Below, in pieces: positions 20,960-24,873 of a stretch of DNA of 64,000 nt. The position numbers were made by a program, and so were the translations under genes. Below the pieces are notes generated by a model, which worked only from the letters and a program-made list of their open reading frames with translations, did not search any database and was not told where the DNA came from. The number at the start of each line of letters is the position of its first letter. The stretch's first letter is position 1. Origin of the DNA: a virus; IMG/VR virus record IMGVR_UViG_3300029131_000002; one strand, written 5' to 3'.

Positions 20960-21346
20960 TTACGCAATCATCCTTTCTGCCCCAATGGGAGCTACATATG
21001 TGAACTGGTTTCCTAAAATATCTCTGGCTGTGCCAATAACAAACTGTCCATAGTCTGCCAGAATATTGCATACAAACTCCTCTGCATCCACCCAATATCG
21101 TTTCTTAACCATACGGTGAAGCTCTGATAGTAAACCATAGCTGAACATCACGCAATGCCCTAATTCGTGGATAAATACACGATTTAGAAGTTCGCCATGT
21201 AGGTTGTTTGCAATAGAAATTGTCATTGTGGAGTAATCAGATACAGCAAGTGTCCTCTGCTCTGTACGGTCAATCAAAACATTATCATTGGGAAAAACAA
21301 AGCGTACTCTCCATAAGTCCCCATTCATATAGAATTGTTTCAGCAT
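20960..21346 (-). CDS. small HEXXH zinc-metallopeptidase-like protein
   Basis: IHELGHCV HExxH motif in a 128-aa protein (ImmA/IrrE-like minimal peptidase). Confidence 0.4.
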   Translation of the reverse strand: MLKQFYMNGDLWRVRFVFPNDNVLIDRTEQRTLAVSDYSTMTISIANNLHGELLNRVFIHELGHCVMFSYGLLSELHRMVKKRYWVDAEEFVCNILADYGQFVIGTARDILGNQFTYVAPIGAERMIA

Positions 21347-21422
21347 GGTTTCTCACCATCCTTTCTACGAAAAAAGCCCCTGCCGCATTAATTTGCGACA
21401 AGGACTTAATTCATTTATTGCT

Positions 21423-22049
21423 CTAGTTCATCTGCTGTACAAGTCTGGTCAGGTCAGCTTTCATCGACTGTCTGAGCGTTGCGTCTGCATCTGACCACAT
21501 CTCTGTAAGATTACGGATAATGTCAGATGTGTACTCCTTCATGGAATCATCCATTTTTCTTTTGGATTCCGTGTCTTTAGAATCATGATAGTGCCTACGA
21601 TTCTCATCATATCTATCATAGGATTCGCCATATCTGGATTTCTTCCGATTCATGTCACCCATTTCCATATCAATACGGTCTGGATGATATCCCATGCGGT
21701 ACATGTTGCGCTCAAATTCTGGATTGTTTAAATACTCATCCATCCAGTCGTCATCCTGCATATACAGATATGGTCTATATCCTTTTCTGGTTCCCCTACC
21801 TTTTGGAGCGAAACGCCCATTTGAATAGCGGTAACGGTCATATCCCATGCGTCCAAGATACTTTTCTTCCTGTTCGCATTCATCCATGGCTTCTACAATA
21901 CGATAATCTTTGTCAGCGCAAATTGCACATTTAACCGCTTCCATGCAGTCTTTCAGATCGTCCCAGTCTTGAGCGCTGAGATTATCAAAGCCATGTGTTT
22001 TTGCTTTTTCCATAGCCCATTTTCCCATTTCCATTGCAACTTTATGCAT
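21423..22049 (-). CDS. hypothetical Y/R/D/M-rich protein
   Basis: 208 aa, low complexity (RMGYDRYRYSNGRF..YRPYLYMQDDDWMDEY). Confidence 0.3.
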   Translation of the reverse strand: MHKVAMEMGKWAMEKAKTHGFDNLSAQDWDDLKDCMEAVKCAICADKDYRIVEAMDECEQEEKYLGRMGYDRYRYSNGRFAPKGRGTRKGYRPYLYMQDDDWMDEYLNNPEFERNMYRMGYHPDRIDMEMGDMNRKKSRYGESYDRYDENRRHYHDSKDTESKRKMDDSMKEYTSDIIRNLTEMWSDADATLRQSMKADLTRLVQQMN

Positions 22050-22489
22050 TACAGTGCCCCCTTTCTAACAGCCTGCGTAACAGGTGCTTCTGTCGTTGGG
22101 GCTGTACCATTAATTGCTTTCAAATTGTTGCTCGGACTACAAGCCGGATTTCCTAACATCTTGAATACTCCGCCAGTTGCACTTGTAGCTACTCTGGTTG
22201 CGTACTTCGTTCTGGTTCTTATTCCACAAGCCGTAATCTGTGCACAGCAACGATTTTCTAGCGGATACAAAGTTGTTCCTGTTCCTATCTGAATCATTAC
22301 CGGAGCAGTAATTGTAGTGGCTTCTGGTATACTTTGTGCAACAACAATACAATATTTCTCTCCATTGTTGTAACTGCCTGCTGGGAGTGTGATTACAAGA
22401 TTACCTCCTGTAAACGCAACAGCTTGGCTTATTACAAGACGGTTGCAGAGCTTACAAACATTTTTACAACTCATATTTCTACCTCTCAA
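22049..22489 (-). CDS. hypothetical cysteine-rich protein
   Basis: 146 aa with CKNVCKLC, CC and C..C clusters; T/A-rich. Confidence 0.3.
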   Translation of the reverse strand: MRGRNMSCKNVCKLCNRLVISQAVAFTGGNLVITLPAGSYNNGEKYCIVVAQSIPEATTITAPVMIQIGTGTTLYPLENRCCAQITACGIRTRTKYATRVATSATGGVFKMLGNPACSPSNNLKAINGTAPTTEAPVTQAVRKGAL

Positions 22490-22553
22490 TCAAAATAAGA
22501 GGTGAGCCGCAACCCACCTCTTAGAATTTAGTCAACCTCTAAGGGTGAGTTAC

Positions 22554-23363
22554 TTAGCAACAACCGTTACCATATGTATTACATCCTGCGTATGCATATG
22601 GAGCTGGAACCTGGAATGCAGGAATCGGAGCCGGGTTGATTGCATTGATTAATCTCTGAGCCTGTGCGTACATCTCTGTTGTAAGCAATGCAGACTGGCG
22701 ATCCTGGGATGCAGCACGTTTCAGATCAGAGTTCTCTGCCTGTAATGTTGCAATCTTATCGTTAGTCAGGAAGTCAAGGATTGCTCTTGTGTTGCTGTTC
22801 TGGTTTTCCAGAAGGTCTCTTGTGTTGTTGTTCATTGTGTTCTGGAGAGCACAAGTGTTAGTGGCAAGGTTATAATTGATGCCCTGGATTGCTTCTCTTG
22901 TTTCGCAACAACAATTTGCTAACTGAGACTGTAATGCGTTGGTATTCTGCATACCGGCTACAGTATCAGCATTGATTGCCTGCTGAACGCCATTAAAGCC
23001 TTGAAGCATTCCGACATTCATACCATTAAAGCCACTCTGCATGGTATTGTTAAGAGAATATGTGCTGTCACAGATACCCTGCTGAATACCTCTGATACCA
23101 TTCTGAATATCATTAAGGGCGAATTCCTCATTAATATCTGAACGGGTAGCCCATCCTTGGAAGCCGGCACCGTTCGCACCGTTTCCACCGTTACCACCAA
23201 AGCCGCCGCCCCAGCCGCCAAAACCTCCCCAGCCGAAGATTGCGAAGATTAGGACGAGCCAGATAAGTGAAAAGCCATCACCGCCCCACATATCATTGGC
23301 ACGGTTATTAGAGCCTGTAGCAGCTGCAATGTCGCTAAGGCTGTAATTTGAACCATTCATCAT
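22554..23363 (-). CDS. hypothetical Gly/Trp-rich membrane protein with Q/N-rich helical domain and C-terminal Cys cluster
   Basis: TM segment LIWLVLIFAIFGW followed by GGFGGWGGGFGGNGGNGANG; CCC and C-terminal GCNTYGNGCC. Confidence 0.3.
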   Translation of the reverse strand: MMNGSNYSLSDIAAATGSNNRANDMWGGDGFSLIWLVLIFAIFGWGGFGGWGGGFGGNGGNGANGAGFQGWATRSDINEEFALNDIQNGIRGIQQGICDSTYSLNNTMQSGFNGMNVGMLQGFNGVQQAINADTVAGMQNTNALQSQLANCCCETREAIQGINYNLATNTCALQNTMNNNTRDLLENQNSNTRAILDFLTNDKIATLQAENSDLKRAASQDRQSALLTTEMYAQAQRLINAINPAPIPAFQVPAPYAYAGCNTYGNGCC

Positions 23364-23459
23364 GTTTTTAGTCTCCTTAAATTTTATTTACAATAGGAGA
23401 CATCCGCGGCTGTCGTCCCAAATTGTAGCGATTCTTAATCACCCAATTATGGGGAAGTG

Positions 23460-23705
23460 TTATAATCCAAGGAATTTCTGTATAATTCCATCTGGTGATA
23501 AGTGTTTTTCATTAAATACATTTTGCTGTATTTGATGCAACTGGTCTGTATCACCTTTTTTGTATAAATCCAACGCATTTTTTAATGTTGGATTATTCCC
23601 TGCAAATTTACTCATATCGTTTATCATGTTATCAACACTTCCGAACCTCTGAGTAATCATTTTCTCAAATTGCTTTTTCATCATGGCGTTTGGACTAAAA
23701 TTCAT
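23460..23705 (-). CDS. hypothetical protein
   Basis: 81-aa ORF, 4-nt overlap with upstream gene. Confidence 0.25.
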   Translation of the reverse strand: MNFSPNAMMKKQFEKMITQRFGSVDNMINDMSKFAGNNPTLKNALDLYKKGDTDQLHQIQQNVFNEKHLSPDGIIQKFLGL

Positions 23706-24199
23706 CTCTGTTTACCTCCATTCTGCTTGAGTTCCGGTGTTCCCGACATTTGTGTCGGAAACATACTCTTTATTTCGGAAATCTCAGAACAAACATCGTT
23801 CCGAAGCTGATTAAACATAGCTTCTATGTCAATTGGTTTTTCTTCTGCCTTTGGTTGCTGTTGTTCTTCCGGATTTATAAGTCGATAAACAAAAATTCTA
23901 CTTCTTCCATCTGCCTGTAATTGTTTTCTATATATTTCTGTTCCATCTGTTTTTGGATAATAAACAGGGTTTCCAGACATATCTACGTCTTTTGCCTTTA
24001 CGGTATCAATACCATCGACCATCTGTCCTTGCAACATGGGGATTTGTGGTACTTGTGGCATTTGTTGTATTGGTTGCTGAATCTGCGCCTGCCCGTATGG
24101 CATTGCCTGCTGATAACTATTCTGTAATTGTGCTAATCTATCTTGATACGGCTGTATTTGTTGAAATGGTTGTGCAAAATACGGATTACCATACTGCAT
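23702..24199 (-). CDS. hypothetical Q/P-rich protein
   Basis: N-terminal Q/P/Y low-complexity segment (QPFQQIQPYQ..QIQQPIQQMPQVPQIP), then a globular part. Confidence 0.3.
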   Translation of the reverse strand: MQYGNPYFAQPFQQIQPYQDRLAQLQNSYQQAMPYGQAQIQQPIQQMPQVPQIPMLQGQMVDGIDTVKAKDVDMSGNPVYYPKTDGTEIYRKQLQADGRSRIFVYRLINPEEQQQPKAEEKPIDIEAMFNQLRNDVCSEISEIKSMFPTQMSGTPELKQNGGKQR

Positions 24200-24292
24200 A
24201 TCTCAAACCTCCCTTGTTTTTATAACTATATTTTACAATAATAAGAGGTTGATTAACACGCCATGATAACGCCATAAATACGCCATTTTCTA

Positions 24293-24529
24293 TTAATACA
24301 AAGAAAAGCCCCGACAATACATCGGGGCAACTTTCATAATTTTCTTTTTTAATTTTCTGTTTATGCGGTCTACGGTTCTCGTGCTGTAGCCCATGATTTC
24401 TGAAGCTTCTGCAAGCGTTTTTTCTTCATAGACACGCAATCGGAATAACTCCTTTTCTCTGGAATCAAATCCAGCTTCACGCAAATAGAAGATTCTTTCA
24501 TCTTCTGAAAAGTCTTTATAATCATCCAT
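24293..24529 (-). CDS. sigma-70 region-4-like HTH mini-protein (putative late regulator)
   Basis: REKELFRLRVYEEKTLAEASEIMGYSTRTVDRINRKLKKKI matches the region-4 pattern of ECF/sigma factors; only 78 aa. Confidence 0.45.
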   Translation of the reverse strand: MDDYKDFSEDERIFYLREAGFDSREKELFRLRVYEEKTLAEASEIMGYSTRTVDRINRKLKKKIMKVAPMYCRGFSLY

Positions 24530-24561
24530 TCCACTGTCCTCCCTGTTAGTGGAATCAATAT

Positions 24562-24873
24562 TTACACCGGGAAAATGCCTTTTAGGGCAAAGCCTAAAAC
24601 AATACCAATTATGCCAGTTATGACATAAGCAATTATTTTGTCCTGTAACTTTCCTGGCTTTTCCATGAGTGATTTTAAATTGTCGTTCATTTCGTCAACT
24701 GTATCCTTAATGTGTCCCAGGTCATTGTTGTATAAAGCAATTTTCTGTTCCAAAGCATTGATACGTTCAAAAAAAACTCCATCCCTTTTGGAATGCTTTT
24801 CTTTCATCTCATGGACGGCACTTTCCAATTCTTTCAAGCGGTGTTCGTTGATACACTCGTGTTCACATCCCAT
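24562..24873 (-). CDS. XhlA-like coiled-coil membrane protein
   Basis: 103 aa: N-terminal coiled coil, single C-terminal TM (AYVITGIIGIVLGFALKGIF); architecture of PBSX XhlA. Confidence 0.35.
   Translation of the reverse strand: MGCEHECINEHRLKELESAVHEMKEKHSKRDGVFFERINALEQKIALYNNDLGHIKDTVDEMNDNLKSLMEKPGKLQDKIIAYVITGIIGIVLGFALKGIFPV

Follow-up and report, generated by a model that had tools for sequence, protein, structure and literature searches.

Organization of the gene cluster

What do eight genes of extreme composition, set between the capsid and the DGR genes of a phage, encode, and do they form a unit of their own? The question is raised by the IMG/VR record IMGVR_UViG_3300029131_000002, of which a stretch of 64,000 nucleotides (the window) has been analysed. 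The cluster spans positions 20960-24873 on the minus strand, and the eight consecutive ORFs described in an earlier note, here called A to H, were all found in place. The flanks are also as claimed, with the major capsid protein gene (25510-26547) on one side and the DGR target gene (18687-20732, 681 aa) on the other. The DGR comprises a TR (18511-18622) and a VR (18721-18832), differing mostly by adenine-specific changes, and a RT gene (17076-18302). ORFs A-H are kept in 80 + 67 related contigs, and E and F belong to large families; the genes are therefore real and under selection. The compositional features that had been attributed to C, E, F, G and H were each retrieved.

A (24562-24873, minus strand as all the following features; 103 aa) has the layout of XhlA proteins, in which a coiled coil precedes a transmembrane anchor at the C-terminus. 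Matches to coiled-coil families cover residues 10-80, and the hydrophobic segment corresponds to residues 78-103. A matches phrog_937 (hemolysin) over its full length (1.9e-13). The score against Pfam XhlA (PF10779; E=3.5e-4, 21.1 bits) falls under the 34.7 cut-off, so that A can be called XhlA-like but does not qualify as a member of the family. B (24293-24529, 78 aa) carries a HTH of the sigma-70 region 4 type. It matches Sigma70_r4 (PF04545) at E=4e-7 (29.9 bits, over the 24.1 cut-off) and TIGR02937 at 7.9e-9 (profile positions 116-163 of 165), and weakly resembles region 4 of sporulation sigma factors. Region 4 alone was matched in profile searches, and region 2, needed for -10 recognition and core binding, is absent. 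A role as a stand-alone sigma factor was ruled out, as B is 78 aa long and contains region 4 only.

C (23702-24199, 165 aa) begins with a Q/P/Y-rich stretch (the whole protein being 18% Q and 9% P), continues with a small conserved domain and ends in a helix. It matches phrog_21718 at 6e-18, and found no counterpart in PDB or Pfam. D (23460-23705, 81 aa) is marked by the conserved motif NNP...NL(C/F)..KG. G (21423-22049, 208 aa) is helical at both ends, with a stretch of low complexity rich in Tyr, Arg and Asp in between; the protein as a whole is enriched in D, R, M, K, E and Y. Neither hydrophobic segments nor signal peptides were found in C, D, F and G. H (20960-21346, 128 aa) hosts a HELGH motif and matches phrog_1233, of unknown function, at 1.4e-9. 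Matches to Peptidase M78/ImmA-IrrE (PF06114; E=0.11, 12.7 bits, the cut-off being 22) and to the phrog_13742/87 peptidases are weak. Among the family labels given earlier, that of B thus stands, that of A is reduced to a likeness, and that of H corresponds to the motif, the phrog_1233 match and weak peptidase matches.

E (22554-23363, 269 aa; phrog_16490 at 1.5e-65) is the hallmark protein. An acidic N-tail is followed by a hydrophobic core, the single one in the protein, placed between Gly/Trp-rich stretches, by two long helices carrying an invariant CCC, and by a Cys/Gly-rich tail ending in GCNTYGNGCC. E is 13% N and 13% G, and has 8 Cys. The N-tail is acidic throughout the family (mean K+R 0.9, D+E 3.5). 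AF2 places helices at residues 31-42, 86-133 and 145-242 (pLDDT 47); both AF2 models obtained have pLDDT below 50. Homologues of E exceed 7,900, and the cluster representatives at 50% identity are 2,661, 1,413 and 336 at E<=1e-3, 1e-10 and 1e-30, respectively.

F (22049-22474, 141 aa) is Cys-rich and beta-rich, and has more than 4,900 homologues. The ORF as called (22049-22489) encodes 146 aa with 8 Cys from a TTG start; the ATG at 22474 is the likely start, because most homologues are 141 aa long. F is the most conserved member of the cluster, its median identity to distant orthologues being 65%, whereas E reaches 45% and the others 26-33%. Cysteines at positions 3, 7, 10, 42, 76, 77, 83 and 112 are invariant or nearly so.

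No match to C, D, E, F and G was found in Pfam, NCBIfam or PADLOC. PHROG families matched by C and E have unknown function, and D, F and G have no PHROG match. The statement that these proteins match no known phage function is consequently valid for C-G.

Distribution and variants of the module

The window cluster is one instance of a portable module of late genes, most of which recurs in thousands of gut phages with very different hosts. It was found in 64-67 of 67 capsid-matched relatives, in which the DGR is the element varying at this position (target gene detected in 41 and RT in 11 of the 67). The core was also identified in 91 diverse loci, from phages and prophages of Clostridia otherwise unrelated to one another, always in the order B, C, D, E, F, G, sometimes followed by H. 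The idea of a cargo confined to one lineage must be abandoned, as must that of eight genes travelling as a single unit: A was found in 9 and H in 25 of the 91 loci. The conserved core is made by B, C, D, E, F and G; A is peripheral, and H an optional last member.

In its full form the module includes a small TM protein, B, C, D, E, F or its alternative F2, G, and then H or another small protein. The gene preceding B encodes a TM segment in 28/45 cases. B, which ranges from 66 to 90 aa, heads the module in 61/91 loci. E is found in all 91, and lies downstream of C in each of the 83 loci hosting the C family. The D family was detected in 42/91, and a gene of about 77 aa fills the slot in most of the others. 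G (69/91) has F or F2 upstream in each case. F2 (phrog_20016; about 140 aa, with conserved Cys) occupies the slot of F, and is never found along with it (43 + 45 of 91 loci). Six of 35 F2 members match BclA_C (PF18573) at E<=0.01, the best at 5e-7 and 30.1 bits against a cut-off of 38; the other 29 have no match, and the link was not confirmed by hhalign. Profile and profile-profile comparisons revealed no similarity of the window F to F2, BclA_C, DUF3992 or DUF4183.

The complete cassette was seen only in phages and prophages of Clostridia. E alone ranges wider, and proteins of the same architecture are encoded by crAss-like phages, by a Bacteroides phage and by viruses assigned to Methanomassiliicoccales. 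In the Bacteroides phage C3_41T2LP, a HEXXH gene near E matches the H profile at 1e-5. Hosts are thus monoderm, diderm and putatively wall-less archaeal, and have in common the cytoplasmic membrane, not the wall.

The module is found after holin/endolysin genes or, as in the window, within the head module, and is in all cases oriented as the late genes. It follows the minor capsid protein gene (Phage_min_cap2) in at least 8 loci, adjoins RBP or DGR-target tail-fibre genes in Dulem virus 36, cr52_1 and vir215, and is often placed at the end of the late operon beside lysogeny genes. The same cassette occurs alongside unrelated capsid and tail types. Three natural variants, of a rare kind and lacking C-H or F-G, retain head and tail genes, and the module is therefore probably dispensable for virion assembly. 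The proposal of an accessory unit is well served by these data.

Regulatory signals

Terminators follow B, E and G in the window, and none precedes B, which sits in the late operon. The first (24308-24328; 9-bp stem with 6 GC pairs, then a T-run) overlaps the 3' end of B, and is kept in related contigs. Next to it are three ATGGCGT direct repeats spaced by 11 bp (24258-24286), putative operator or activator sites, which form the sole such array in the window. All sub-lineages have 3-4 copies of TG(G/A/T)CG every 11 bp. Phased 11-bp repeats of different sequence were found after B in 9/58 diverse loci, compared with 0.1% of shuffles and 0/271 coding controls. About 20 nt 3' of the last repeat is an extended -10-like box, TGTAAAAT (24230-24237); the RBS AAGGGAGG and the C start codon, ATG, come next. 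TATAAT is found at the equivalent site in other sub-lineages; both boxes are of the sigma-A, housekeeping type, not of the sigE/sigK type. A terminator-like hairpin (22496-22523; 12-bp stem and T-run) separates E and F, and is directly 5' of the F RBS. The terminator after G (21374-21407; 14-bp stem and T-run) is strong. Insertions in relatives gather just past it, between G and H; another small HEXXH protein and ORFs of the Zn-ribbon type are among them.

B is the putative activator of the module. Late activators of Firmicutes phages (for example TP901-1 Alt; sigma-like proteins of the ArpU/RinA type) recognise direct repeats that lie upstream of a late promoter. B resembles them in being a small protein with a sigma region 4 HTH, and phased repeats replace the -35 of the promoter next to it. 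It differs in size, and in that it would serve one cassette and not the whole late operon.

Function of the module

The reading preferred here, to which a probability of about 30% is assigned, is that the module encodes a complex, anchored in the membrane and activated by B, which acts as infection ends. B would be produced by read-through of the late head operon and bind the phased repeats, turning on C-D-E, with F-G expressed by partial read-through; a delayed, very late expression class would result. E would enter the cytoplasmic membrane by its short hydrophobic core. Charge bias suggests that the N-tail is outside, and that the helical Cys-bearing domain of about 200 residues is cytoplasmic. 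E would draw in F, along with C, D and G as partners of low complexity, and the assembly could influence lysis timing, membrane breakdown or egress, as an accessory to the holin-endolysin pair and not as its substitute. This reading is favoured by the constant gene order, the small TM or coiled-coil protein that usually stands ahead of B, the shared orientation with late genes, the terminators and phased-repeat promoter, the acidic E tail together with the lack of hydrophobic segments in C, D, F and G, and the cytoplasmic membrane as the feature common to such different hosts.

A lysis-associated role had been advanced earlier. It is favoured by the neighbours found in many other phages, since in one set of loci the genes upstream of the module encode holins and endolysins (Amidase_2 in 9, CHAP in 4 and CW_7 in 4 cases; also Amidase_3, M23 and glucosaminidase). 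It is disfavoured by the window phage itself, whose endolysin is about 30 kb away. This canonical enzyme (Amidase_2 + CW_7) is encoded about 7.5 kb past the left edge of the window. The cluster is not the lysis cassette of this phage, because the endolysin is encoded elsewhere. C-H matched no holin, endolysin or spanin family in Pfam, PHROG and NCBIfam. The absence of homology of the core to holins, spanins, antiholins or other lysis proteins, A being weakly XhlA-like, speaks against an action at the end of infection.

Two lysis systems are of use for comparison. The Bacillus PBSX cassette (xepA-xhlA-xhlB-xlyA) also includes a membrane-anchored coiled-coil protein, to which A is akin, and is expressed from the late region; the module directly follows holin/endolysin genes in many phages. 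However, A is weakly XhlA-like and missing from most copies of the module, which has no internal holin or lysin; C-G have no PBSX counterpart, and the window endolysin is distant. Spanins (Rz/Rz1, P2 LysB/LysC) are membrane-anchored coiled-coil proteins with functional cysteines, which act last in lysis, are accessory to holin and endolysin, and are dispensable under some conditions. The N-terminal anchor, long helical domain and conserved Cys of E are reminiscent of them, and the crAss cr52_1 gene at the position preceding B is annotated as LysB/FtsL-like. In contrast, there is no sequence similarity, the module lacks a lipoprotein partner, most hosts are monoderm Clostridia, which offer no outer membrane for fusion, and the helical domain of E is plausibly cytoplasmic.

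The proteins might instead be virion accessories, a doubtful alternative. E would then serve as a coiled-coil shaft, or be ejected and insert into membranes, with F or F2 as tip or partner, and C, D and G assembly or internal proteins, in a dispensable fibre, decoration or ejection set. The location inside the head module, here and after Phage_min_cap2 elsewhere, or near fibre genes fits such a set, and argues against the end-of-infection reading. The predicted E helix of about 98 residues, the terminator 3' of E, typical of abundant structural genes, and the weak F2 similarity to a trimeric jelly-roll domain point the same way; ejection and tape-measure proteins, too, carry TM-like segments. 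Yet the cassette is common to phages with unrelated capsids and tails, often follows lysis genes, and brings a regulator and a promoter of its own. Conservation extends to the hydrophobic core, which is accompanied by another small TM protein, and the BclA_C link stays under the Pfam cut-off and does not extend to the window F. An integral virion role is made less likely by portability across unrelated head and tail types, and by deletion variants that keep both.

That the module is a moron, a membrane complex for superinfection exclusion, defence, or surface or lysogenic conversion, is unlikely. Terminators on the flanks, the dedicated promoter and regulator, the presence of membrane proteins, mobility between phages along with dispensability, and the frequent location by lysogeny genes, the classic moron site, are all in keeping with it. 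However, PADLOC defence models gave nothing beyond coiled-coil noise for A and a ZorA match of 0.006 for E, and an exclusion system of 6-8 genes in fixed order would be a large one. B lies within the late operon with no terminator ahead, the module stands within the structural block in crAss-like phages, and F is under strong purifying selection, not the diversification of an arms race.

It is quite improbable, though worth stating, that a membrane-anchored lattice, fibre or condensate of low-complexity, cross-linkable proteins is made by the phage, coating, clustering or protecting the progeny after lysis. The Cys/Gly-tailed E, Cys-rich F or jelly-roll F2, Q/P/Y-rich C and Tyr/Arg/Asp-rich G would be its parts, and B would turn assembly on at the very end of infection. 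Such material would be a convergent analogue of spore coats and viral occlusion bodies, in phages of bacteria and archaea. The very high conservation of F, like the Cys/Gly tails, would suit a structural material that assembles itself no less than the preferred reading, and counts against the latter. The beta-rich F, with Cys clustered at its N-terminus, recalls the Cys-rich connectors of Ena subunits, and F and F2 alike are about 140 aa long and have conserved Cys. F-ENA is one type of endospore appendage subunit (PMC12357932). No collagen-like region is present, F is unlike BclA_C, and most F2 members fail to match it.

Hardly tenable is the analogy drawn by the earlier note, by which spore-coat or exosporium-like proteins would modify the host spore: Cys-, Tyr- and Gln-rich compositions recalling coat proteins, the weak matches of F2 to BclA_C and of B to sporulation sigma factors, and the prevalence of Clostridia among hosts speak for it, but E occurs in phages of non-sporulating hosts, the -10 boxes are of the housekeeping type, and the window proteins match no coat, exosporium, Ena or DUF4183 family.

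Implications

A cassette of 6-8 genes in fixed order, equipped with its own regulator and hosting an E family of about 1,400 clusters (50% identity, E<=1e-10), is one of the more widespread units of the gut virome still to be characterised. B and the phased-repeat promoter make a compact, testable regulatory switch, for which natural deletion variants are ready controls. Its function, once known, would annotate thousands of genes together, and may reveal a new step in the end phase of infection, or a material of a new class, made by phages.

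The gene cluster and its flanks

All eight ORFs lie on the minus strand where the earlier note had placed them: A (24562-24873), B (24293-24529), C (23702-24199), D (23460-23705), E (22554-23363), F (22049-22489), G (21423-22049) and H (20960-21346). For F, the ATG at 22474 is most likely the true start, because the predicted product of 141 aa has the length of most F homologues. The compositional descriptions given for the proteins were accurate on recount, and the flanks are as claimed, with terminase, portal, scaffold, decoration and major capsid genes upstream, and the target and reverse transcriptase (RT) genes of a DGR downstream. 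The family labels need more caution. B is a bona fide sigma-70 region-4 HTH protein (Pfam score of 29.9 bits, exceeding the cut-off). A is XhlA-like only, being below the Pfam cut-off and matching phrog_937 at 1.9e-13, and H, previously called a metallopeptidase, carries the HELGH motif with no solid family match. Searches of all eight proteins against Pfam, PHROGs, NCBIfam and PADLOC returned just the A and B labels and PHROGs of unknown function; C, D, E, F and G have no annotated match in these databases.

The DGR is complete (17076-20732). TR (18511-18622) and VR (18721-18832) form a 112-nt pair, differing mostly at adenines. VR is located at the 3' end of the gene encoding the 681-aa target, TR is 210 nt away, and a 408-aa RT then follows. 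An 80-aa ORF called I (20717-20959) overlaps the start of the target gene and travels with it, not with the cluster. In other loci the profile of I matches longer DGR-target-like proteins in their N-terminal parts, and I may be the split-off N-terminal domain of such a protein.

Other features of the window are worth recording. A gene for an SPFH/Band-7 protein (31523-32476) lies directly upstream of the terminase gene, and the early region encodes two serine recombinases, one of the 209-aa resolvase type (38414-39043) and one of the 589-aa large type (47449-49218). A 1,994-aa ORF (7388-13372), with zero matches in a Pfam scan, occupies the tape-measure slot, behind the genes for the tail tube and two chaperone-like proteins, and is followed by HNH, replication and anti-repressor genes rather than baseplate genes. 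The late region is thus interrupted: the genes for a 1,289-aa protein and for the endolysin are reached only about 15 kb past this ORF (L256 and L257).

Conservation among close relatives

Relatives were gathered in two ways. In 80 IMG/VR contigs from human-gut phages (about 76-85 kb) collected via E, the order capsid-g50-g106-A-B-C-D-E-F-G-H is kept in all 80, and only some of these contigs carry the DGR target and RT. A second set was collected via the capsid protein, to remove selection bias. In the 67 loci of this set with enough downstream sequence, each cluster gene was found in 64-67. The notion of a cargo confined to one lineage is consequently abandoned. Of the same 67 loci, 41 gave a hit for the DGR target and 11 for the RT, which makes the DGR the variable element at the locus.

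Three natural deletion variants have been identified. In L250 a truncated B runs directly into the head-tail connector gene, so that C-H are missing; F and G are missing from L202, and F, G and H from L241. All three have intact head and tail genes, and the cluster, strongly retained as it is, is therefore probably dispensable for particle building. In some relatives a second small HEXXH protein (HEIVH or HEIIH) and small Zn-ribbon ORFs are found between G and H, directly past the G terminator (L005 10134-10523, L027 9991-10323, L110 12258-13005), and this stretch is an insertion hot-spot. In one relative (L069 9138-10157) a 339-aa HNH-type homing-endonuclease-like ORF separates E from F.

A portable module with fixed gene order

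Gene families defined by iterative profile searches were mapped in 91 diverse loci. Eleven are phage records (Dulem and Bajarodcaudo viruses, Butyrivibrio phage Ceridwen, C. perfringens phages and uncultured gut phages), and 80 are genome contigs, scanned with a six-sequence E alignment, from Lachnospiraceae, Oscillospiraceae, Acutalibacteraceae, Ruminococcus, Blautia, Enterocloster and others. Gene order is fixed throughout. A small TM protein occupies the first slot and B the second (61 loci). The third, optional, hosts a protein of about 125 aa, phrog_3754, in 46 loci. C (83/91) is fourth, D or a gene of similar size (42/91 by profile) fifth, and E (91/91) sixth. The seventh slot is filled by F (43/91) or by the alternative protein F2, phrog_20016 (45/91); the two are mutually exclusive and together occupy 88 loci. 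G (69/91) is eighth, and H (25/91) or a helical protein of about 105 aa (15/91) closes the series. A was found in just 9 of the 91 loci, so that the unit is B-G(-H) rather than the block of eight genes initially described.

The phrog_3754 protein is absent from the window. In L104 (8599-8982) and the 45 other loci (alignment A6) it features invariant Asp-Cys, His and Asp residues, a pattern suggestive of a catalytic triad like that of papain, transglutaminases or NlpC. The gene adjoins that of the Gln-rich protein C. The protein has no Pfam match, and profile searches of PDB sequences with it, as well as with F, F2 and C, gave nothing significant.

E homologues in other viruses

The full architecture of E comprises a Gly-rich/hydrophobic/Gly-rich segment and helices with CCC, to which bacterial members add a PxPAY...CGCGC tail. 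Homologues with this architecture extend beyond Clostridia. Many crAss-like phages encode one, annotated as 'spike protein/glycoprotein'. In Bacteroides uniformis phage C3_41T2LP the E profile matches at 1e-36, and a nearby HEXXH gene matches the H profile at 1e-5; in two viruses assigned to Methanomassiliicoccales the E match is at 1e-15, with two CCC motifs. An exhaustive search returned 2,661, 1,413 and 336 cluster representatives at E<=1e-3, 1e-10 and 1e-30, respectively. Each of the 150 best-scoring ones is a stand-alone protein, usually of about 230-300 aa. In some database proteins (P0059, P0060) the N-terminal two-thirds of E are fused to a GDSL-lipase domain.

Neighbours of E in Bacteroidota phages have G-like composition (YDRDYDRE runs) or a single F-like motif, G-I/V-F-R/K-L/M-x-G. 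The module profiles do not detect them, and they are accordingly candidate homologues at most. In crAss cr52_1 (L172 3751-9449, table 11) many in-frame stops fall within annotated genes, the E homologue included, as would fit the recoding of a stop codon in this phage.

The E gene and a DGR (target and RT) are no more than a few kb apart in three unrelated virus groups: in the window (17076-23363, Clostridia phage), in crAss cr52_1 (1130-6582) and in vir215 (L175 1815-6522, assigned to Methanomassiliicoccales). The proximity could be due to chance, or to a shared position beside receptor-binding genes.

Transcription signals

Strong intrinsic terminators follow B (24328-24308, overlapping its stop codon), E (22523-22496) and G (21407-21374). 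Directly past the B terminator there are three ATGGCGT repeats at exactly 11 bp spacing (24286-24258), the sole such array within the 64-kb window. TGTAAAAT comes about 20 nt further on, ahead of a good RBS and the start codon (ATG) of C. All sub-lineages of related contigs have three or four TG(G/A/T)CG units at 11 bp in the same position, followed by TATAAT or TAAAAT. Diverse loci were searched for at least three copies of a 7-mer (up to one mismatch) at intervals of exactly 11 bp and no more than 140 nt after B. Such arrays were found in 9 of 58 loci, in 0.1% of shuffles and in none of 271 coding controls, and the sequence of the 7-mer changes between lineages. The -10 boxes of the C promoter region are of the housekeeping type. 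B would bind the phased repeats and activate the promoter of C-D-E, and F-G would be transcribed by read-through.

Properties of the encoded proteins

The N-terminal tail of E is acidic family-wide (mean K+R 0.9, mean D+E 3.5), and C, D, F and G have neither hydrophobic segments nor signal peptides. Judged from charge bias only, the simplest topology for E would be N-out/C-in, with the helical domain and all partners cytoplasmic. About four Cys are set within Gly/Asn-rich repeats in the last 22 residues of E, regardless of the partner that follows. AlphaFold2 (57 sequences) predicts for E a short TM helix, a disordered Gly-rich linker and long helices at 86-133 and 145-242; at pLDDT 47 and pTM 0.19, confidence is too low for fold comparison.

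F is by far the most conserved member: its median identity to distant orthologues reaches 65%, compared with 45% in E and 26-33% in B, C, D, G and H. Eight Cys are conserved in F, and a profile-based homologue search returned only sequences 67-78% identical to it. The AlphaFold2 model (25 sequences) is a partial beta-sandwich only, at pLDDT 48. The Cys pattern CX3CX2C led to consideration of a radical-SAM enzyme, which was rejected because F is too small and beta-rich. F2 is the only module member linked to a named family: 6 of 35 members match Pfam BclA_C at E<=0.01 (best 5e-7), all under the gathering score. By hhalign, F and F2 have no detectable similarity, and F2 was negative against a BclA C-terminal sequence.

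Genomic context and possible function

Pfam analysis of 140 genes directly upstream of the module revealed two recurrent contexts. One is made of lysis genes (Amidase_2, nine cases; CHAP and CW_7, four each; Amidase_3, M23, glucosaminidase, r1t and Hol44 holins), the other of head genes (Phage_min_cap2, eight cases; portal). In Dulem virus 36 the module comes after the receptor-binding protein. Orientation is that of late genes without exception, and downstream genes, among them integrases and repressors, are often on the opposite strand.

The frequent adjacency to holins and endolysins and the accompanying small TM and coiled-coil proteins suggest a role in the phase of lysis or egress. We tentatively view the module as an accessory, membrane-associated complex of that phase, turned on by a dedicated regulator at the end of the late programme, with a probability of about 0.3. 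The cluster is not the lysis cassette of the window's phage, as a canonical endolysin (Amidase_2 and CW_7) is encoded about 7.5 kb past the left edge of the window (L256 17504-18310, L257 17484-18290), preceded by the 1,289-aa protein and then by three small ORFs (68, 152 and 40 aa). Past the endolysin, a LytTR response regulator and a CI-like repressor are encoded on the opposite strand.

Head-module and tail-fibre contexts and the BclA_C-like F2 would fit virion-associated accessories, such as fibre, decoration or ejected proteins; this is rather unlikely, given the portability of the module, its regulator, the TM segments and the deletion variants. A moron-type exclusion or conversion function is more doubtful still. 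The spore-coat or exosporium analogy, drawn earlier from composition, is highly improbable, since the hosts of E homologues argue strongly against a spore-specific role; none of the cluster proteins match DUF4183, the subject of the F-ENA paper (PMC12357932). The remaining probability belongs to something not yet imagined.

The module families are listed in PHROGs as of 'unknown function', and no description of the module was found in the searchable literature. The earlier suggestion of a novel accessory module was right in substance, and the module is widespread rather than confined to one lineage.
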